Source: Chloroflexota bacterium
GTDB lineage: Bacteria > Chloroflexota > Dehalococcoidia > Lucifugimonadales > Lucifugimonadaceae
Assembly: GCA_002719295.1 (NCBI GenBank)
Contig: PBHC01000004.1
Location: 3,240 to 37,829 of the forward strand
Direction of reading: 5' to 3'
DNA length: 34,590 nucleotides
Positions 20,109 through 29,132 of this stretch are shown piece after piece; the stretch's first letter is position 1; each line of letters opens with the position of its first letter. A program made the position numbers and the translations under genes. The notes beneath the pieces were generated by a model, which was not told the origin of the DNA, did not search any database, and was given only the letters and a program-made list of their open reading frames with translations.

Positions 20109-20999
20109 TCAATCTCCCAGCAGTGTTGACATTGTGACTCCAAGGGAGTCTGAGATTGATTTAAGCGAGCCTAGGGATACGTTTTGCTTTCCTTGCTCCA
20201 CTGCGCTTATAAATGTTCGAGCAAGTCCCGATTTCTTTGAAAGCTCGCTTTGGCTAAGATTTCTGTTTTTTCTTACCGTATGAATTTTATCTCCTAGTGA
20301 CAAAAGGACTGATTCTAAAGGCATCAAGGCGGGATTTGTTTCAACAAGAGAGTTTGCAACATATGTTGCTTTTAATGGATCGTCTGCAAAACCGTCAATA
20401 TACCTGTTGGTATCTTTTATCAATGATGCAGCGGGGCCTCCAATAATAACTTTAATATTTTTATTTAGTTCCTTAATGGATTGAATGGCCTCTTCAAGTT
20501 TATTGTTACTATTTGGAAAAGTAGATGATAAAAGAACAAAGTTAGGAACGGTTGTGTCTATATATTTTATTAAATCTGCATTTGGGATAGAGCTCCCTAA
20601 AAGCTCTACATTCCATCCGTCCCATCTAAAAAAATCTGCAGTCATATACAAACCAATCACATGAGTGTCATCCTCTATAGCCGACATAGATATTTTCATT
20701 CCATTTGGAGTAGGAAGCCTAAAATTGTTTCTAACCCTATCCATTAATAAGAGGCAAAATTGAGTCGCTCTATGCTCTTCAGTAATCAATATTTTCCCTT
20801 GATGCCATAAATTGCCTATATGGTTTAGAGAAACTCTAATCAAATCAAGGTAAATAACAGCAGGTGACCATTGCTGAGAAATCAACATTCGGGAAATTAA
20901 ATTAGCCTGATTATAATGACCATTAACCAAACTTGAAGTAAGCTGCTTAGAAACAGCCTGAATTTCAGTTTTAGGTGGCACGTACCAGTTTGAATTCAT
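20109..20999 (-). CDS. Cobalamin-binding transcriptional regulator: B12 cap domain + B12-binding Rossmann domain + C-terminal XRE HTH
   Basis: W-x9-EH (WHQGKILITEEH), DTHVIG base-off His motif and VIIGGPA. C-terminal RKNRNLSQSELSKKSGLARTFISAVEQGKQNVSLGSL is an XRE/Cro HTH. GAGGG Shine-Dalgarno present. Confidence 0.88.
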   Translation of the reverse strand: MNSNWYVPPKTEIQAVSKQLTSSLVNGHYNQANLISRMLISQQWSPAVIYLDLIRVSLNHIGNLWHQGKILITEEHRATQFCLLLMDRVRNNFRLPTPNGMKISMSAIEDDTHVIGLYMTADFFRWDGWNVELLGSSIPNADLIKYIDTTVPNFVLLSSTFPNSNNKLEEAIQSIKELNKNIKVIIGGPAASLIKDTNRYIDGFADDPLKATYVANSLVETNPALMPLESVLLSLGDKIHTVRKNRNLSQSELSKKSGLARTFISAVEQGKQNVSLGSLKSISDSLGVTMSTLLGD

Positions 21000-23567: not shown

Positions 23568-24394
23568 TAAATAAAATAAAAAAAACTTTTTATATTAATA
23601 CTCTTATTATTGCTACTATATTTTTATTTTTCGGATGTAGCAACACATCAGATAAAGAAGATAAAACTATAGCCGCAACTCAAAACAATCAACTCAGAGC
23701 CTCCAATCAAATGCTGATGGAAGATAAAGACTATTCGAATATCTTTTGGATCAAGGGAACTGGTTCAGTTAAGCAAAAGCAAGATATTGTTGAGGTAAAC
23801 ATGGCTATTGAAAATAGAGATAAAGAAATAATAAATGCTACTAAAGTTGTTAATGAAAATATAAGTAAAATTATTAAGATTGCAGAAACTATTGGAATTG
23901 AAAAAGATCAAATAGTAACTTCAGAATATTCTATTACCCCTGTAACTAGATGGGTTGAAAAAGAAGATGAATATGGAAATTATGGAGAGAGTCAAATTAT
24001 TGCTTACAAAGTTTATAATTCTGTGATAATAAGTTCAGAAGATAAAGATAAAATAACTAATTTTATAGATAAAGCAAGTCTAGAAACAGGCAATTCATTT
24101 AGGGTAAATAATATAAGATTTAAAGCTAAAGTGAATGATGAAAATAAAATTTTAGCGAGAGAAAAAGCAGTCGATGACGCTACTAGCAAAGCTAAATTTT
24201 ATGAAAAAGAATTAGGTATAAAACTTGGAAAAATAATATCTTTTGAAGAATTTCAACCAGGTACTCCTATCAATAAATCTGCTTATGATATGCCTATGAT
24301 GAGAATGTCAGCAGAAGCAATGCCATCCACAGAATTATTTGCAGGGGAATCTGAAATAATTAGTGAAGTTTATATAGGATTTGAAATAGAATGA
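23564..24394 (+). CDS. SIMPL (DUF541) domain lipoprotein
   Basis: Lipobox FFGC, GTGSV, AREKAVDDA..KA and LGIKLGKI. Confidence 0.85.
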   Translation: MINKIKKTFYINTLIIATIFLFFGCSNTSDKEDKTIAATQNNQLRASNQMLMEDKDYSNIFWIKGTGSVKQKQDIVEVNMAIENRDKEIINATKVVNENISKIIKIAETIGIEKDQIVTSEYSITPVTRWVEKEDEYGNYGESQIIAYKVYNSVIISSEDKDKITNFIDKASLETGNSFRVNNIRFKAKVNDENKILAREKAVDDATSKAKFYEKELGIKLGKIISFEEFQPGTPINKSAYDMPMMRMSAEAMPSTELFAGESEIISEVYIGFEIE

Positions 24395-25050
24395 AGGTAA
24401 AGTTTTTATTATTTTTTTCAATATTATTAATAACTTCATGCAATCAGTTAGAAGATGATTACAACCTTTGTGATTCTAATAATTCTCTATGTACATTTTT
24501 TGAGATAAAATATCCAGAAATTTCTCAAATTACTGATGATAATGCACAACTAGCTGTTGAAGACTTAAATACTTATAGAATGTTAAGCAAAAATCACGAA
24601 GATGACATTAAATCAAATTCTGTTTTTGATTCTTATACAGAAATTTTTATACCCAGATTTTCCTACCATATATTAAATTTAGAAGGTTTAGAAAAGTTAT
24701 GGTTTGGACTTGCATTATACCCACTTGATTACAAAAATAATCTTTCTAGCGTAATAGATTTTTTTTATAGTGATGTACAATCTCTAAATGAAACTTTATA
24801 TGGGAATTGCACTAAGGATAAAGGTTCATATTTAGATTCAAAAAACAGTAAAATTTATAACTGCTTAAAAGATGGTGTAAAAAGTTACGATTTTTGGGTT
24901 TCTGATGAAGAATTTTTGTGGCGGATGAAATGTGTATGGGAAGATGATAAATTCGAAGGCATAAACCTAAATATAGTAAAATCTGAAATTGTAATATCTT
25001 CTGATACTTGCAGAAAATCATTTGAAAGCTTTAAGTCAAAAATTAATTAG
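24391..25050 (+). CDS. Hypothetical lipoprotein
   Basis: Lipobox ITSC and six further Cys that could form disulfides. ATGA overlap with the SIMPL gene. Confidence 0.65.
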   Translation: MKVKFLLFFSILLITSCNQLEDDYNLCDSNNSLCTFFEIKYPEISQITDDNAQLAVEDLNTYRMLSKNHEDDIKSNSVFDSYTEIFIPRFSYHILNLEGLEKLWFGLALYPLDYKNNLSSVIDFFYSDVQSLNETLYGNCTKDKGSYLDSKNSKIYNCLKDGVKSYDFWVSDEEFLWRMKCVWEDDKFEGINLNIVKSEIVISSDTCRKSFESFKSKIN

Positions 25051-26282
25051 ATTTTACTCGTTTTAAAATAATCAACAGCTTCTTTTAAAGAATCAATAAA
25101 GATGTCTATTTCTTTATAAGTATTATAGAGATAAAAGCTTGCTCTACAAGCTGCAACAATTTCATATGATCTAACTAATGGCATTGCACAATGATGTCCT
25201 GTTCTAATAGCAACTCCATATTTGTCTAGAATTTCTCCAATATCATGTGGATGAACAGAATTATGTGTAAAAGAAATTACCCCTCCTCTATTATTCATAT
25301 CAATAGGCCCAATAACTTTATAATCAGGTAATTCTTTTATTTTATCTAAAGCATAGCTTGTTATTTCATCCTCATGCTTTGCTATATTATCCATACCCAC
25401 TTCAACTAAATAATCTACTGCATAACCTGTAGCAATCGCATCTGCTATATTTGGAGTTCCAGCCTCAAATTTATAAGGTAAATCATTCCATTTTGCACCT
25501 TCATAAGTTACTTCTGAAATCATATCACCACCAAAATAAAAAGGATCCATCTTATCAAGTAAATCTTCTTTTCCAAATAGAACTCCTATACCAGTAGGAC
25601 CTAGCATTTTATGAGCAGAAAAAGCAAAAAAATCACAATCTATTTCTTTCATATCAACTGAAAAATGAGGAGCACTTTGAGCTCCATCTAAAACTAATAT
25701 CGTACCATTTTTCTTAGACATTTCTCTTAATTCATGTATGGGATTAATGACACCCAATACATTAGACATATGAGTAATTGCAATTATTTTAGTTTTTTTA
25801 TCTATAATTTTTTTAGCATTATCTAGATCAATTCTTCCTTCTAAATCATGATCTAAGTATCTTAATTCAGCATTCTTTTCAAAGCACAATTGTTGCCAAG
25901 GCACTAGATTTGAATGATGCTCCATTCTTGAAACTACAATATTGTCCCCCTGATTAACTTCTTCTTTTAAACCTATTGAAACAATATTTAAAGACTCACT
26001 TGTATTCCTTGTCCAAATAGTTTCATTTGGGGACGCATTAATAAAATTAGCAACCTTTACTCGTGAATTTTCATATTCGTCGGTTGCTTCAACAGATAAT
26101 TTATGAACACCTCTATGTACATTTGAATTGTAGTTAGTGTAATAGTCATTTAATGACTGAATTACTAAATTAGGTTTCTGAGAAGTTGCAGCATTATCTA
26201 AATATACAAGCTTTTTATTGTTCACTTGTCTATCTAATATTGGGAAATCATTTCTTATTTTTTCTATATTGAAATTTGCCAT
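25047..26282 (-). CDS. sufS: Cysteine desulfurase, SufS group II
   Basis: YLDNAATSQKP, MEHHSN, DGAQ, SAHKMLGPTG (PLP Lys), FEAGTP and RTGHHCAMP (catalytic Cys). Confidence 0.96.
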   Translation of the reverse strand: MANFNIEKIRNDFPILDRQVNNKKLVYLDNAATSQKPNLVIQSLNDYYTNYNSNVHRGVHKLSVEATDEYENSRVKVANFINASPNETIWTRNTSESLNIVSIGLKEEVNQGDNIVVSRMEHHSNLVPWQQLCFEKNAELRYLDHDLEGRIDLDNAKKIIDKKTKIIAITHMSNVLGVINPIHELREMSKKNGTILVLDGAQSAPHFSVDMKEIDCDFFAFSAHKMLGPTGIGVLFGKEDLLDKMDPFYFGGDMISEVTYEGAKWNDLPYKFEAGTPNIADAIATGYAVDYLVEVGMDNIAKHEDEITSYALDKIKELPDYKVIGPIDMNNRGGVISFTHNSVHPHDIGEILDKYGVAIRTGHHCAMPLVRSYEIVAACRASFYLYNTYKEIDIFIDSLKEAVDYFKTSKI

Positions 26283-26303: not shown

Positions 26304-26312
26304 ATTTTAACA
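26304..26312 (-). promoter_or_regulatory. Candidate extended -10 promoter (TG-T-TAAAAT) for sufS
   Basis: TGnTAAAAT about 21 nt upstream of the sufS start, with AGGA in between. Confidence 0.4.
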
Positions 26313-26331
26313 TTAAATACCAAAAAAATTA

Positions 26332-26340
26332 TGTTATTAT
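26332..26340 (+). promoter_or_regulatory. Candidate extended -10 promoter (TG-T-TATTAT) for the Cys leader and yeeE operon
   Basis: Ends 8 nt before the leader ATG at 26349, with no Shine-Dalgarno in between. Confidence 0.5.
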
Positions 26341-26348
26341 ACAAGTCT

Positions 26349-26420
26349 ATGAATATAAGAAATTTAACAAATAACGGATGTATCTGTTGCTGTTGTATGA
26401 ACAGCTCCAGGTTTCTTTAA
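26349..26420 (+). CDS. Cysteine-rich leader peptide, 23 aa: MNIRNLTNNGCICCCCMNSSRFL
   Basis: ATG at 26349, then TGT ATC TGT TGC TGT TGT at 26379-26396, and TAA at 26418-26420. It lies directly upstream of a sulfur-transport operon. Confidence 0.85.
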   Translation: MNIRNLTNNGCICCCCMNSSRFL

Positions 26421-26479
26421 TTTGTTTTAATTTCAAAAATAATACAAAATTTAGAAACCCCTTAAACGGGGTTTTTTTT
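26379..26479 (+). promoter_or_regulatory. Putative cysteine-responsive ribosome-mediated attenuator
   Basis: A Cys codon run is followed by an antiterminator pairing, GGTTTCT (26410-26416) with AGAAACC (26453-26459), which competes with the terminator stem. Confidence 0.78.
26453..26479 (+). terminator. Intrinsic terminator in the leader of the yeeE operon
   Basis: Stem AAACCCC (26455-26461), loop TTAAAC, stem GGGGTTT (26468-26474), with a T8 tract at 26472-26479. Confidence 0.8.
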
Positions 26480-27721
26480 ATGGAAAATTTAATGTTAAAA
26501 ACAGAAAAAATAAAAGTATCAAATCAAAAAATCTTAGGTTGGTTATTTTTTGTACTAGTATTTATATTCTCTTTTGCGATATCACAAAATAATTTCTCTG
26601 ATGCGGCTATTTGGATTGCAGCATGTGGATTAGGTTTCACTCTGCAAAAATCTAGATTTTGCTTTGCATCATCTTTTAGGGATTTATTTATGTTTGGATC
26701 TGGTCATAATATGAAGGCTGTACTTTTAGCAATGTCTATAGCTTCTGTAGGTTTTGTGGGAATATTAAAATGGATATTGCCAGATCCTGTTCCAGGCGAA
26801 TTTCCTTCTTCTGCACATGTGCTTCCATTTGGTTTTTCCACATTAATTGCAGGTACTGTTTTTGGCGTAGGCATGGTAACAGCAGGAGGATGTGTTTCAG
26901 GGACAATATATAGAATAGCAGAAGGGTATGTTGCTTCAATTGTCACAATGATAGGGATTTTTATAGGCACAATTTTATTAGTAATCACTTGGGATTTTTG
27001 GTGGGATAATTTTATAAGCAATGAACCAAAAATCTTTCTACCCTCAACTCAATCCATAGGTTATGGATTTTCATTATTAATTACTATGCTTGGAATTATT
27101 TTAGTATATTTCCTAGTTGTCTATATTGAAACAAAATCTGGTGTTGGCAGTTTCTCTATATCAAAAAAATCTGAACTTAAATCTAAAAGTTTCTTTGAAA
27201 CAATCAAGCAAAATATTGATACATTATTCTCAAAAAGCTGGACAGCTTACTCTGGAGGAATTGCTCTTGGGTTTATTGGAATAGTTTATTTTCTATTTCA
27301 TTCTCCACCAGGTGTAACCGGTGAAATAATGAAACAATCAATGAATATTGCTCAAGGTATAAACCTTTCAGACGGACCTTTAAAAGGAATAGCTTCACTT
27401 AGCGGGTGCTTGGGTTCTAGTATAGAATCAGGTATTATATCTCATACTTTCGTAAGTACAGTAGGAGTGTTCTTTGGAGCCTTAGTTTCAGCATTGCTTT
27501 CTCAAGAATTTAAAATAAGAACTCCAAAAGAAACAAAAAGATATGTTCAATCATTATCTGGAGGAATTCTCATGGGATACTCTGCAAGCCTTGGAATCGG
27601 TTGTACTATTGGGGCATTCTTTTCAGCAATACCTTCATTCTCTTTATCAGGATGGCTTTTTGGAATAAGCCTTGCAATGGGGGCATTTATTGGAACTAAA
27701 ATCATTAAATTTATAGGATAA
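26480..27721 (+). CDS. YeeE/YedE-family sulfur-compound (thiosulfate-type) transporter (start revised to 26480; 26492 is an alternative)
   Basis: Two sulfur-transport repeats with the conserved Cys motifs SRFCF, AGGCVSG and GIGCTIG. The ORF-track start at 26378 runs through the leader and terminator. Confidence 0.92.
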   Translation: MENLMLKTEKIKVSNQKILGWLFFVLVFIFSFAISQNNFSDAAIWIAACGLGFTLQKSRFCFASSFRDLFMFGSGHNMKAVLLAMSIASVGFVGILKWILPDPVPGEFPSSAHVLPFGFSTLIAGTVFGVGMVTAGGCVSGTIYRIAEGYVASIVTMIGIFIGTILLVITWDFWWDNFISNEPKIFLPSTQSIGYGFSLLITMLGIILVYFLVVYIETKSGVGSFSISKKSELKSKSFFETIKQNIDTLFSKSWTAYSGGIALGFIGIVYFLFHSPPGVTGEIMKQSMNIAQGINLSDGPLKGIASLSGCLGSSIESGIISHTFVSTVGVFFGALVSALLSQEFKIRTPKETKRYVQSLSGGILMGYSASLGIGCTIGAFFSAIPSFSLSGWLFGISLAMGAFIGTKIIKFIG

Positions 27722-27723
27722 AA

Positions 27724-27975
27724 ATGAAAAAAATAAATGAAATAAACTTAATTAAAATTCCAGTAAAAGATCAATTATTAAGAATAAATGAAATCTTAGA
27801 AGAACTATTTTCTAGTAATGGTGGCATCGGAAACTGTAGTAAAACAAAAATACTAACGACTGATGAATTACTTGTAAAGTATATTCCACCAAAAGCAGTC
27901 GAAAAAAAAATCAAAATAAAAATCAAATATGTTGATGATATCTGGCACATAACTTTAGAAAAGGAACAAAAATGA
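27724..27975 (+). CDS. TusA-like protein lacking the CPxP motif
   Basis: Aligns by eye with the next gene: IPPKAVEK vs IPPQALKR, WHITLEK vs WKITLTK, LRINE vs LKTNE. Confidence 0.65.
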   Translation: MKKINEINLIKIPVKDQLLRINEILEELFSSNGGIGNCSKTKILTTDELLVKYIPPKAVEKKIKIKIKYVDDIWHITLEKEQK

Positions 27976-28208
27976 GTAATGAAGAAATAAAAAAATTGGA
28001 TCTTAGGGGTGAAATTTGTCCTTATCCAATGCTCAAGACTAATGAAGAATTAGATTCAAATAAGGATATAAATATTCTTGAAGTCATCACAGATCATTCT
28101 CCTGCTCTCTCAACTATTCCACCACAAGCATTAAAAAGAGGTTATGAAGTTGAAATAGATGAAATCGATAACAGTGAATGGAAAATAACTTTAACAAAAG
28201 ATAATTAA
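27972..28208 (+). CDS. Sulfur carrier, TusA/YeeD/YedF family
   Basis: LDLRGEICPYP, LEVITDH and IP..A.KRGY. Confidence 0.93.
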   Translation: MSNEEIKKLDLRGEICPYPMLKTNEELDSNKDINILEVITDHSPALSTIPPQALKRGYEVEIDEIDNSEWKITLTKDN

Positions 28209-28223
28209 ATATAAGGGGGACTT

Positions 28224-29132
28224 ATGAAAAAATTATTAATAATTGGATTTGCAACAATTGGACTCTTTTTGGGCTGTTCGTCAGAAGGATCAGACTCTGG
28301 GTTTAGCAATAGAGGATATTCTAGTACAGACAAGCTAGTATCTGCTGAATGGCTAAATAATAATCTAAAAAGTGTAAAAATAATAGATGTAAGAAAAGCA
28401 GAAGATTATGACACAGGGCATATTCCAGGTGCAGTTAGATTGACTCCAAATGAAGTTTTTCAATGGGAAACTGAAGATGGAGTTAAAGGGATGTTACCAT
28501 CTAGCAATCATATATCAGAAGCTCTTTCGTCTGTAGGAATAGGGGAAAATGATACGGTTATTTTTTATGACGGCAATAGTAACTTGTGGGCATCAAGAGG
28601 ATTATGGGCACTAGAGGTTTATGGGCATCAAGATTCTAGATTACTTGATGGATCTTGGGCTTACTGGTCAGAAAATGGATACCCTATAAGTACTGATAGT
28701 CCTTCTATTTCAAAAACTAATTATAAATTTTCGGGCACACCAAACTCAGACTTAATAGCCGACTGGGAAGAAATATTAGAAACAGTTGATGACCCTTCAA
28801 AAATTGTTTGTGACACTAGAAGCCCTGATGAATATGCAGGTAAGGATGTAAGAGCTGACAGAGGAGGTCATATTCCAGGAGCAGAAAATGTGAACTGGGT
28901 TAATGCTGTTGATGAAAGTGGACAATTCCTAGATGCAGATAAATTAAGTAGCATTTATGAAAGCAAAGGAATAAAGACTGAAAAAGCAGTTTATACACTA
29001 TGTCAAACCGCAGTGAGAGCTACTCACACCTGGTTTGTTCTACAAGAGCTTTTAGGTTATGACAATGTAAAAGTTTATGATGGCTCTTGGATTGAGTGGG
29101 GTAATTCAGAATTACCTATAGAATCAAAATAG
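28224..29132 (+). CDS. Tandem-domain rhodanese (sulfurtransferase) with lipoprotein signal
   Basis: Lipobox FLGC, two GHIPGA motifs, active loop CQTAVRA and VYDGSWIEW. AAGGGGG Shine-Dalgarno present. Confidence 0.92.
   Translation: MKKLLIIGFATIGLFLGCSSEGSDSGFSNRGYSSTDKLVSAEWLNNNLKSVKIIDVRKAEDYDTGHIPGAVRLTPNEVFQWETEDGVKGMLPSSNHISEALSSVGIGENDTVIFYDGNSNLWASRGLWALEVYGHQDSRLLDGSWAYWSENGYPISTDSPSISKTNYKFSGTPNSDLIADWEEILETVDDPSKIVCDTRSPDEYAGKDVRADRGGHIPGAENVNWVNAVDESGQFLDADKLSSIYESKGIKTEKAVYTLCQTAVRATHTWFVLQELLGYDNVKVYDGSWIEWGNSELPIESK

Follow-up and report, generated by a model that had tools for sequence, protein, structure and literature searches.

A candidate reduced-sulfur uptake operon with a four-cysteine YeeE-type channel, a cysteine-less TusA-like protein and a putative lipoprotein rhodanese in marine Chloroflexota

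Layout of the locus

The window, by which we mean the whole stretch of 34,590 nt that was analyzed, belongs to a MAG of the marine Chloroflexota/Dehalococcoidia with a small genome and a GC content of 30%. The genome is 81% complete, and the gene absences reported for it below are therefore provisional. Four co-oriented genes on the plus strand constitute the operon, encoding a YeeE-type channel (26378/26480-27721), an 83-aa TusA-fold protein (27724-27975), a 78-aa TusA carrier with a CPxP motif (27972-28208) and a tandem rhodanese of 302 aa (28224-29132). The list of ORFs bears out the co-oriented arrangement with gaps of 2, -4 and 15 nt described in an earlier reading of the DNA (hereafter the sequence-only reading), the second junction being a 4-nt ATGA overlap. 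Shine-Dalgarno-like stretches, namely AGGA, AAGGA and AAGGGGGA in this order, precede the three downstream starts. The operon is adjoined by a gene for a SufS-type desulfurase (selenocysteine lyases belong to this family as well), and this neighborhood is limited to the genus. No regulator gene adjacent to the operon was found among the Pfam families of the neighboring genes, and the sole Rfam match in the window was a tRNA.

The channel and its subfamily

The first gene (26480..27721, plus strand) encodes a sulfur channel with the domain order of YeeE/TsuA, which matched PF04143 (Sulf_transp) over its whole length (model positions 1-310) with 203.7 bits against a gathering score of 27. The gene itself is real, but the start assigned to it in the sequence-only reading, 26480, needs correction. 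Because in three close orthologues (L001, L002 and L005) the ATG corresponding to 26480 either lies in another frame or directly precedes a stop codon, the second ATG at 26492, which yields a protein of 409 aa, is probably the true start.

The alignment with PDB 6leo (E = 8.3e-22) paired C22, C91 and C293 of StYeeE with C61, C138 and C375 of the channel, and these three residues were invariant in all of the 35 homologues. The fourth cysteine, C310 in an SGCLG motif, was present in 22 of the 35 representatives and in 76 of the 78 metagenome homologues, so that both the three conserved motifs and the extra one, as first noticed in the bare sequence, are genuine. When the two halves of the channel were compared with each other, C61 aligned with C310 and C138 with C375, albeit weakly (E = 5.4e-4, probability of 30%). 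According to the StYeeE structure report (PMC7449682), loops LA and LB, which bear C22 and C91, are on the cytoplasmic side, loop LD with C293 is on the periplasmic side, and helix H7 inverts the orientation of the second half. Given this topology, C310 in the LC loop would be, by analogy, on the outer side of the membrane.

The channel missed the cut-offs of both NCBIfam TsuA models by far (NF041049, 96 bits vs. 645; NF052577, 121.3 bits vs. 400). The N-half is followed by the C-half as in TsuA, and a single collinear HSP connected residues 52-404 with residues 15-329 of P0117, a TsuA representative that passes the TsuA cut-off. The score against the YedE/FdhT model, NF033796, was 193 bits in two separate stretches, under the cut-off of 350. 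All four proteins that exceeded this cut-off have the C-like half first, and the HSPs to P0085 and P0122 were permuted relative to the N-C order of the window protein. Of the 88 representatives that had been scanned, 77 entered a quick IQ-TREE analysis together with the window protein and 12 locus proteins (90 rows), while P0015, P0018, P0049, P0063, P0064, P0073, P0074, P0076, P0087, P0090 and P0103 were left out. The four YedE/FdhT proteins formed a separate clade with a support of 100%, apart from the channel, while the TsuA representative had a long branch (2.29) and an uncertain placement. Placement of the channel within the selenium-linked YedE clade had been named as an observation that would speak against a role in sulfur relay; the opposite half order and the separate clade exclude it. 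By alignment and phylogeny, the channel is a member of a distinct YeeE subfamily with a fourth pore-loop cysteine.

Two TusA-fold proteins and a rhodanese

The 83-aa protein (27724..27975, plus strand) alone gave no Pfam match. Nevertheless, the TusA fold was recovered by profile and structure comparisons. The hhalign comparison with the TusA of the same operon gave a probability of 97.2% (E = 3.4e-11, 73 columns), and 6 of the 14 homologues individually matched PF01206. The AF2 model (pLDDT 82.5) displayed a beta-alpha-beta-alpha-beta-beta arrangement, and its best Foldseek matches were the SirA-like protein 3hz7 (TM 0.70/0.77), E. coli TusA 3lvj_C (0.64/0.68) and the YeeD part of 8k1r. The position of the CPxP cysteine is occupied by V, I, A, P, L or M in 14/14 homologues, and the only cysteine of the window protein is in an insert found in two of the 14 aligned sequences, which agrees with the initial description as a TusA-like protein lacking CPxP. 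Judging from these alignments, the TusA mode of sulfur transfer is not open to the protein, despite its fold. Its gene was directly downstream of the channel gene in 30 of the 30 metagenome loci possessing it, even where the TusA-rhodanese pair has moved, and the protein most likely docks on the channel as a partner without catalytic activity. Co-folding of the channel and the 83-aa protein gave a score of 0.00, which, being without controls, has no bearing on binding either way.

The third gene (27972..28208, plus strand) encodes a TusA-family sulfur carrier of 78 aa with a CPYP motif, which scored 65.6 bits against PF01206 (cut-off of 28.6). Cys16, Pro17 and Pro19 were invariant in 14 orthologues. 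The scores were below the equivalog cut-offs of both YedF (52.7 vs. 79) and TsuB (26.2 vs. 147.5). In the whole genome, this gene was the single match to PF01206.

The fourth gene (28224..29132, plus strand) encodes two rhodanese domains, detected as two stretches matching PF00581 (119.2 bits), with an active-site loop, CQTAVRA, bearing Cys260 in the second domain. The best PDB match was 3hwi, a thiosulfate sulfurtransferase of the Mycobacterium tuberculosis type (185 bits). The N-terminus has the features of a lipoprotein signal: a basic n-region, then a hydrophobic core, and Cys18 at the end of a lipobox. Cys18, Cys196 and Cys260 were conserved in 11/11 orthologues, the lipobox is retained even in distant homologues, and the genome encodes the lipoprotein maturation enzymes Lgt (180 bits) and LspA (112.5 bits). 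The rhodanese proposed earlier to be exported is thus a predicted lipoprotein.

A cysteine-codon leader and a terminator upstream of the channel gene

An ORF of 23 codons, MNIRNLTNNGCICCCCMNSSRFL, is present on the plus strand at 26349..26420, and its translation contains a run of five cysteines (codons at 26379-26396). A weak promoter-like site (TTAACA, 17 nt, TATGTT; 26307..26335, plus strand; 9/12 matches in a consensus scan) is located just upstream, within a block conserved among the genus loci. The cysteine run was conserved in 7/7 aligned upstream regions, including those of L003 and L004, where the remaining leader sequence has diverged. Of the 64 metagenome loci, 20 had small ORFs with a cysteine cluster ahead of the module, against approximately 2.4 expected. 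No Rfam family matched the leader.

The leader is followed by a terminator-like hairpin (26453..26479, plus strand), which consists of AGAAACCCC, a loop, GGGGUUUUU and a U-run. A 9-bp stem containing GC pairs appeared in every fold, and the hairpin was conserved among the aligned loci, where the loop changes were compensating. The sole G-rich, Shine-Dalgarno-like stretch before the channel start falls within the 3' arm. A candidate antiterminator arm, GGUUUCU (26410..26416, plus strand), ends 1 nt ahead of the leader stop codon and is complementary to AGAAACC (26453-26459). This pairing was not robust: the 7-bp alternative was part of the minimum-energy structure only when a ribosome was masked at the first cysteine codon, while the terminator remained the minimum-energy structure in simple folding with the ribosome at later cysteine codons. 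The combination of five cysteines in 23 codons with a subsequent 9-bp stem and U-run has the pattern of a leader-peptide attenuator, and the hairpin with a U-run behind the leader suggests classical transcription attenuation. As the codons in question are UGU/UGC, we infer that the switch responds to the cysteine supply.

Conservation of the neighborhood and expression

A survey of the neighborhood revealed that the genes are co-conserved. Among 41 relatives, 16 genomes were YeeE-positive and 13 of them shared the same four-gene order. One further contig ends after the second gene, another genome has the order TusA-rhodanese-YeeE-p83, and G039 possesses a different lipoprotein where the rhodanese would be. 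Of the metagenome loci, 30 had flanks of 2 kb or more on either side; TusA was found in all 30, a rhodanese in 27 and the cysteine-less paralogue in 15. The rhodanese carried a lipobox in 24/30 loci by pattern and 25/30 by eye; two loci had only a signal-less rhodanese and three lacked a nearby rhodanese. The module of YeeE, TusA and lipoprotein rhodanese recurs on metagenome contigs of 29-74% GC. In the literature searched, we found no description of this operon type, the four-cysteine YeeE subfamily or the cysteine-less TusA partner.

Metatranscriptome contigs (at least 95% likeness; 17 of the 20 at 99% or more) spanned 27381-29030, 27523-28220 and 27834-28313. Together they bridge all three gene junctions, consistent with the co-transcription assumed at the outset, although a single transcript is not provable in this way, and such libraries can contain DNA. 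The region comprising the end of the leader and the 5' end of the channel gene (26368-26601) was without cover in four RNA-library runs.

Sulfur metabolism of the host and its relatives

The suspected lack of assimilatory sulfate reduction was supported in the genomes searched: PAPS_reduct and NIR_SIR exceeded their cut-offs in 0/13 genus genomes, and neither was found in the genome of the window. Among the 41 relatives, the channel was present in 14 of the 21 genomes without NIR_SIR but only 2 of the 20 with it. The corresponding numbers for 151 genomes of the order were 10/36 without and 4/115 with sulfite reductase; 26 of the 36 sulfite-reductase-lacking genomes were also without the channel, and related genomes in these counts are not independent of each other. 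A CysK/CysM-like gene was detected in 10 of the 13 genus members but not in the window's own genome (81% complete), in which MetY was found. The route to cysteine appeared to be incomplete, as CysE was not found in the 13 genus members. SepCysS, considered as the missing route through tRNA-dependent synthesis, was rejected (best match of 30.6 bits vs. a cut-off of 365).

Relation to known systems

The operon resembles TsuA-TsuB (YeeE-YeeD) of E. coli and Spirochaeta thermophila (PDB 6LEO, 8J4C and 8K1R) in the Pfam family, half order and three pore cysteines of the channel, in the small CPxP protein of the TusA family encoded in the same operon, and in the presumed assimilatory purpose. On the other hand, the channel of the window, with approximately 28% identity, is far below both TsuA cut-offs and is distinguished by an additional hydrophobic segment at the N-terminus, a central insertion of approximately 35 residues and the fourth loop cysteine. 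Furthermore, the operon adds the cysteine-less TusA paralogue, the lipoprotein rhodanese and putative leader control by cysteine; the YeeD paper mentions rhodanese 0 times. Overall, the operon is best read as a variant of the TsuA-TsuB kind.

The leader has a precedent in Ms5788A/Rv0815A, mycobacterial polycysteine sORFs upstream of cysA2 which attenuate the rhodanese operon (10.1101/834739); in both cases a short ORF with a cysteine run precedes an operon encoding a thiosulfate sulfurtransferase. The mycobacterial element is portrayed there as leaderless and translational, hiding the Shine-Dalgarno sequence, whereas the window has a terminator hairpin with a U-run that covers a G-rich stretch in addition. 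The YTD cluster of sulfur disproportionators and cable bacteria (YedE-related, TusA, DsrE-like, Chp1 and Chp2) likewise combines a YeeE-like channel and TusA with further sulfur-transfer proteins. In contrast, the window, from an aerobic marine heterotroph, has no DsrE-like or Chp gene, and its accessories are the rhodanese and the cysteine-less TusA.

Proposed function and alternatives

The conserved neighborhood, the missing sulfate pathway, the non-YedE channel, the leader and the RNA contigs across the junctions support the scavenging of reduced sulfur suggested in the sequence-only reading. We propose, with a probability of about 0.5, that the operon serves the uptake of reduced inorganic sulfur (thiosulfate, polysulfide or other sulfane sulfur), is induced upon cysteine starvation, and belongs to a host unable to reduce sulfate; thiosulfate or sulfane sulfur would be the substrate. 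The lipid-anchored rhodanese on the outer face of the membrane would bind sulfane sulfur as a persulfide on Cys260, leaving sulfite outside in the case of thiosulfate. Through a putative Cys-to-Cys relay, the sulfur would then pass to the outer pore-loop pair, C310/C375, and the inner pair, C138/C61, and be accepted by the cytoplasmic TusA carrier on Cys16. A precedent for such a route is SoxT1A, by which sulfur from a periplasmic carrier is brought in for use in the cytoplasm (PMC11582611). From TusA, it may be delivered to a CysM-like cysteine synthase, O-acetylhomoserine sulfhydrylase or cofactor pathways requiring sulfur. With plentiful charged Cys-tRNA, the ribosome would reach the leader stop codon and the terminator would form; a ribosome stalled on the cysteine codons would permit the alternative pairing, and transcription would continue. 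The operon would thereby compensate for the lost pathway from sulfate to sulfide, and import of sulfane sulfur alone would suit a cell without sulfite reductase.

How the sulfur crosses the membrane is the matter on which the closest alternative differs. A tentative proposal, which may well turn out wrong, is that the four-cysteine YeeE is not an ion channel but a transmembrane persulfide wire, in which the rhodanese strips the sulfane atom, the atom moves from C310/C375 via C138/C61 to TusA, and the cysteine-less paralogue is a fixed cytoplasmic docking or gating subunit. The TsuA authors (PMC7449682 and the YeeD paper) favor a mechanism in which thiosulfate crosses as an intact ion, with the cysteines guiding it, and is then decomposed by YeeD. 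A plain channel of this type, with thiosulfate decomposed on TusA in the cytoplasm and the rhodanese either preparing the substrate (e.g., thiosulfate from sulfane sulfur and sulfite) or having a side role, would still be assimilatory and cysteine-controlled. The collinearity with the TsuA representative, the three retained cysteines and the CysM-like enzyme of the genus fit such a channel, as do the mechanism demonstrated for E. coli and S. thermophila and a cable-bacteria model, outlined in PMC13047784, in which periplasmic rhodaneses form thiosulfate that enters via YeeE. We nevertheless consider the plain channel rather unlikely: it leaves no role for the fourth cysteine or the tightly linked lipoprotein rhodanese, the channel is far from both TsuA cut-offs, and cytoplasmic decomposition would release sulfite in a genus in which no sulfite reductase was found. 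CysM of E. coli uses thiosulfate.

The remaining alternatives change the element, the purpose or the direction of transfer. Import of selenite or selenotrisulfide for selenophosphate synthesis, as in YedE/FdhT-YedF, would explain why the models of this related system within the superfamily are the top-scoring NCBIfam ones for the channel (193 bits) and the carrier (52.7 bits); selenium is used by the organism, whose SelD contains an in-frame TGA, and a potential selenocysteine lyase relative, SufS, is next door. The rhodanese also weakly matched NF040901, the model of ExtH, which is a rhodanese-like lipoprotein of a Geobacter selenite/tellurite reduction operon, encoded in a cytochrome and porin cluster and not known to adjoin a YeeE channel. 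The two share a lipoprotein signal and, presumably, extracytoplasmic action, but the score was 72 bits against a cut-off of 200, and those of the channel and carrier were likewise under their cut-offs (350 and 79). The YedE/FdhT proteins are circularly permuted relative to the channel and form their own fully supported clade, SufS does not neighbor the operon outside the genus, and the leader is rich in cysteine codons. Nor does the channel follow SelD, which was absent from 4 of the 16 channel-positive genomes (97, 95, 87 and 85% complete) and present in 22 of the 25 channel-negative ones. A selenium function is therefore improbable. We give still less credence to sulfur import for dissimilatory oxidation or for reporting external sulfur to a regulator. 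Such roles are ascribed (PMC11582611) to the YeeE-like SoxT1A and SoxT1B of Hyphomicrobium denitrificans, which work with TusA; SAR202 relatives have been linked to the oxidation of sulfite and thiosulfate (PMC9416657; see also PMC5864207). In the SoxT systems, the donor is SoxYZ and the repressors are SoxR/sHdrR, while the window has a putative rhodanese donor, a cysteine-codon leader befitting biosynthetic control and no adjacent regulator gene. A search of the genome (81% complete) for the DsrE family gave no gene, the operon TusA was the only one detected, and the CCG-domain proteins present are not diagnostic of an sHdr system. The direction of transfer is unreadable from sequence, and PMC11582611 discusses zero-valent sulfur movement for some YeeE/YedE-family proteins; however, the export of sulfane sulfur for detoxification or delivery to a surface acceptor via the rhodanese is the least probable of all, as induction by cysteine starvation is opposite to the need of a detoxifier and the link with the loss of sulfate reduction points to acquisition.

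Thiosulfate import by YeeE-type proteins was shown only recently, and the pore cysteines may either guide the ion or carry sulfur covalently. The four-cysteine subfamily, with its putatively symmetric cysteine set across the membrane, coupled genetically to a presumptive surface rhodanese donor and TusA acceptor, is a sharp test case. Small-genome marine Chloroflexota that yielded no sulfate-reduction genes are enriched for the operon. This distribution suggests that the cells draw on thiosulfate or sulfane sulfur and parallels SAR11, known for its dependence on reduced sulfur. If true, the persulfide wire would explain how streamlined SAR202-related ocean bacteria without sulfate reduction meet their sulfur needs, and the leader with its terminator would extend cysteine-sensing attenuation beyond mycobacteria. 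A homologue of the cysteine-less TusA-like protein is encoded by a cultured relative, Candidatus Lucifugimonas marina, and should the complete operon be verified in it, experiments would come within reach.

Layout and expression of the operon

The host of the window is a MAG of 1.27 Mb (81% complete), and the window has a GC content of 30%. The ORF listing bore out the four co-oriented genes proposed by the sequence-only reading, namely those of a YeeE-type channel (26480-27721), an 83-aa protein (27724-27975), a TusA carrier (27972-28208), and a rhodanese (28224-29132), all on the + strand with gaps of 2, -4, and 15 nt. A Shine-Dalgarno-like motif precedes the start of each of the three downstream genes, and the rhodanese gene, the last of the operon, stops 3 nt short of a convergent S58-peptidase gene. 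The Pfam scan named three of the four proteins: the channel (Sulf_transp, 203.7 bits), the TusA carrier (TusA, 65.6 bits), and the rhodanese (two rhodanese domains, 119.2 bits). Because the ATG aligned to 26480 cannot open the channel gene in three close orthologues (L001, L002, and L005), the conserved start is probably 26492. The ATG at 26480 (region 26480-26494), located immediately 3' of the terminator U-run, is itself conserved, and in the three orthologous loci it heads a mini-ORF of just 1-5 codons ahead of the real start (ATG-TAA in two). It may be a start-stop element influencing re-initiation.

Near-identical contigs were found in four metatranscriptomic runs from two studies. Single contigs cover 27381-29030, 27523-28220, and 27834-28313, so that all three gene junctions are bridged, albeit this falls short of proof of one transcript, and RNA libraries can contain DNA. 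One contig (run X1) lacks a base at 27959, a position close to the 3' end of the 83-aa gene and shortly ahead of the TusA start; this gap may reflect strain variation or an error in the contig.

Conservation of the four-gene module

The channel was present in 16 of 41 related genomes, and a survey of gene neighborhoods, which the sequence-only reading had proposed for this YeeE subfamily, supported the module: the four-gene order is identical in 13 of the 16. Among the others, the contig stops early in one, the order is TusA-rhodanese-channel-83-aa protein in another, and the third (L011 in genome G039, from a related family) lacks both the rhodanese and the 83-aa protein and has a 373-aa lipoprotein of no assigned family after TusA (103-1224, - strand). 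In genome G009 (L022/L025), one frame carries 1-193 of the channel gene and a second frame 198-407, and many X stand in the translated loci, pointing to a frameshift in the gene or to poor assembly.

A metagenome scan retrieved 80 loci with GC contents of 29-74%, and neighborhoods were counted in the 30 loci flanked on both sides by at least 2 kb. TusA was found in all of the 30 and a rhodanese in 27, the latter bearing a lipobox in 24 loci by pattern and in one more by eye. The 83-aa protein was found in 15, always encoded immediately 3' of the channel gene even when the TusA-rhodanese pair was upstream or on the opposite strand. The lineages free of it often possess a second rhodanese without a signal upstream.

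Cysteines and phylogenetic affinity of the channel

C22, C91, and C293 of the solved S. thermophila protein (TsuA) align with C61, C138, and C375 of the window protein, and all 35 homologues retain these three. The extra SGCLG motif, also pointed out in the sequence-only reading, supplies C310, which is present in 22 of the 35 representatives and kept in 76 of the 78 metagenome homologues with the column covered. According to the structural report on TsuA, four loop elements display pseudo-222 symmetry, the conserved cysteines are confined to loops LA, LB, and LD, and C22 and C91 face the cytoplasm while C293 is periplasmic (PMC7449682). A weak half-versus-half profile alignment (E 5.4e-4) placed C61 opposite C310 and C138 opposite C375. 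From this alignment, the loop symmetry, and the known sides of the TsuA cysteines, we infer that C310 would belong to the fourth loop and be placed on the outer side, giving two cysteines per leaflet.

The top NCBIfam model for the channel was selenium YedE/FdhT, with 193 bits against a cut-off of 350 and the match split over two stretches. Among 88 of the best 150 YeeE/YedE-family representatives scanned (fragments and long fusions excluded), only four passed the YedE/FdhT cut-off and one a TsuA cut-off, and none of the 20 best-ranked passed either. The YedE/FdhT class carries its two halves in reverse order relative to the window protein, which gave permuted HSPs with representatives P0085 and P0122 but one collinear HSP with the TsuA representative P0117. 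The reverse half order relative to TsuA, i.e., circular permutation, was seen in 26 of the 88 (within P0028-P0143), including all four above the YedE/FdhT cut-off; the publications consulted do not mention it. In a quick tree of 90 rows with the halves re-ordered, the window clade (17 rows, 100% support) was nested in a 31-row clade of collinear proteins (99% support), and the four YedE/FdhT proteins formed a separate clade elsewhere (100% support). Thus, from both half order and tree position, the channel does not cluster with the selenium-linked YedE clade, a grouping that the sequence-only reading had named as evidence against itself.

SelD, whose gene has an in-frame TGA, occurs widely, and its presence does not track that of the channel. 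The gene in the window's genome (contig C12, 34886-35812) has one in-frame TGA, as do most of the 34 genomes, among the 41 relatives, in which SelD scored over the cut-off; SelD itself is therefore probably a selenoprotein.

The 83-aa protein and the rhodanese

The 83-aa protein alone matched no Pfam family. Its profile matched that of the neighboring TusA with a probability of 97.2% (E 3.4e-11, 73 columns), and six of 14 homologues individually matched PF01206. The AF2 model (pLDDT 82.5) has a beta-alpha-beta-alpha-beta-beta order, and its top Foldseek matches were a SirA-like protein, E. coli TusA, and the YeeD part of the YeeE-YeeD structure. These three lines identify the protein as a TusA paralogue. 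The CPxP cysteine, whose absence had been recognized from the sequence, is missing in all of the 14 homologues. The paralogue evolves faster than its operon neighbors (47-75% versus 77-96% identity). Its relatives, publicly annotated as hypothetical or TusA-related, come from Chloroflexi and SAR202, one of them belonging to Candidatus Lucifugimonas marina.

The rhodanese is nearest to actinobacterial and Thermus thiosulfate sulfurtransferases (3hwi, 185 bits). Both lipobox and active-site cysteines are conserved in 11 of 11 orthologues, and Lgt and LspA are encoded in the window's genome.

Cysteine leader

An ORF of 23 codons, five of them for Cys, stops 33 nt 5' of a 9-bp hairpin, which, with its U-run, abuts the channel gene. 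The Cys run is retained in seven of seven aligned upstream regions, two of which have diverged in other sequence. Small ORFs with at least three Cys in six codons, no more than 450 nt upstream of the first gene of the module, occurred in 20 of 64 metagenome cases against 2.4 expected from the background rate. The leader end can form a 7-bp alternative pairing with the terminator 5' arm, and in simple folding this beats the terminator only with the ribosome at the first Cys codon. In mycobacteria, polycysteine short ORFs are reported to attenuate a cysA2 operon at the translation level (10.1101/834739), whereas the window leader is followed by the hairpin and U-run.

Sulfur physiology and the role of the operon

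No PAPS-reductase-family or sulfite-reductase gene scored over the cut-off in any of the genus's 13 genomes, of which four are at least 90% complete; the sequence-only reading had proposed a check for assimilatory sulfate reduction. Both genes are present in larger-genome relatives. Among the 41 relatives, the channel occurred in 14 of the 21 that lack NIR_SIR versus two of the 20 that carry it. When 151 genomes were sampled evenly across the order, the channel occurred in 10 of 36 without sulfite reductase versus four of 115 with this enzyme, related genomes not being independent, and the genus-level tally was roughly 6/19 versus 4/67. Most genomes without sulfite reductase are also without the channel. 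A CysK/CysM-like gene was detected just below the cut-off in 10 of the 13 genus genomes, and CysE was found in none of the 13. The window's own genome possesses MetY, no DsrE was found in it, and the TusA of the operon is its sole TusA.

Altogether, the sequence-only interpretation was upheld in every check run, and we consider the finding real. Assimilatory uptake is the role we favor for the operon, with a probability of about 0.75. Within that role, we give roughly even odds to a covalent relay along the system, and uptake of whole thiosulfate is about half as likely. We would class the operon as a variant of the TsuA-TsuB type, lying outside TsuA by NCBI criteria and containing no YedE/FdhT protein. 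It is distinguished from TsuA-TsuB by the four-cysteine channel and the fixed cysteine-less TusA paralogue, and further by the operon-encoded lipoprotein rhodanese and the cysteine leader.

Neighboring genes and assembly

A SufS-type cysteine desulfurase (25047-26282, - strand; TIGR01979, 577 bits) is encoded divergently from the leader with no adjoining sufBCD. This position is kept in the loci of the genus and not in L003, L004, and L015. SufS and the operon could be under a common intergenic control region, or SufS could pass sulfur to the operon's TusA. A 219-aa predicted lipoprotein of no Pfam or NCBIfam family (24391-25050, + strand) also lies beside SufS in L005 and L006 (51-67% identity). 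Contigs C11/C17 and C12/C19 of the window's genome gave duplicate matches with identical scores (MetY at 672.1 bits and a 973-aa CCG-domain protein, each found two times), which suggests duplicated contigs in this assembly, of which the stated contamination is 4.3%. Elsewhere in the window, a 296-aa protein (20109-20999, - strand) comprises B12-binding_2 and B12-binding domains followed by a C-terminal Cro/C1-type HTH, which is an uncommon domain arrangement among cobalamin-dependent regulators.
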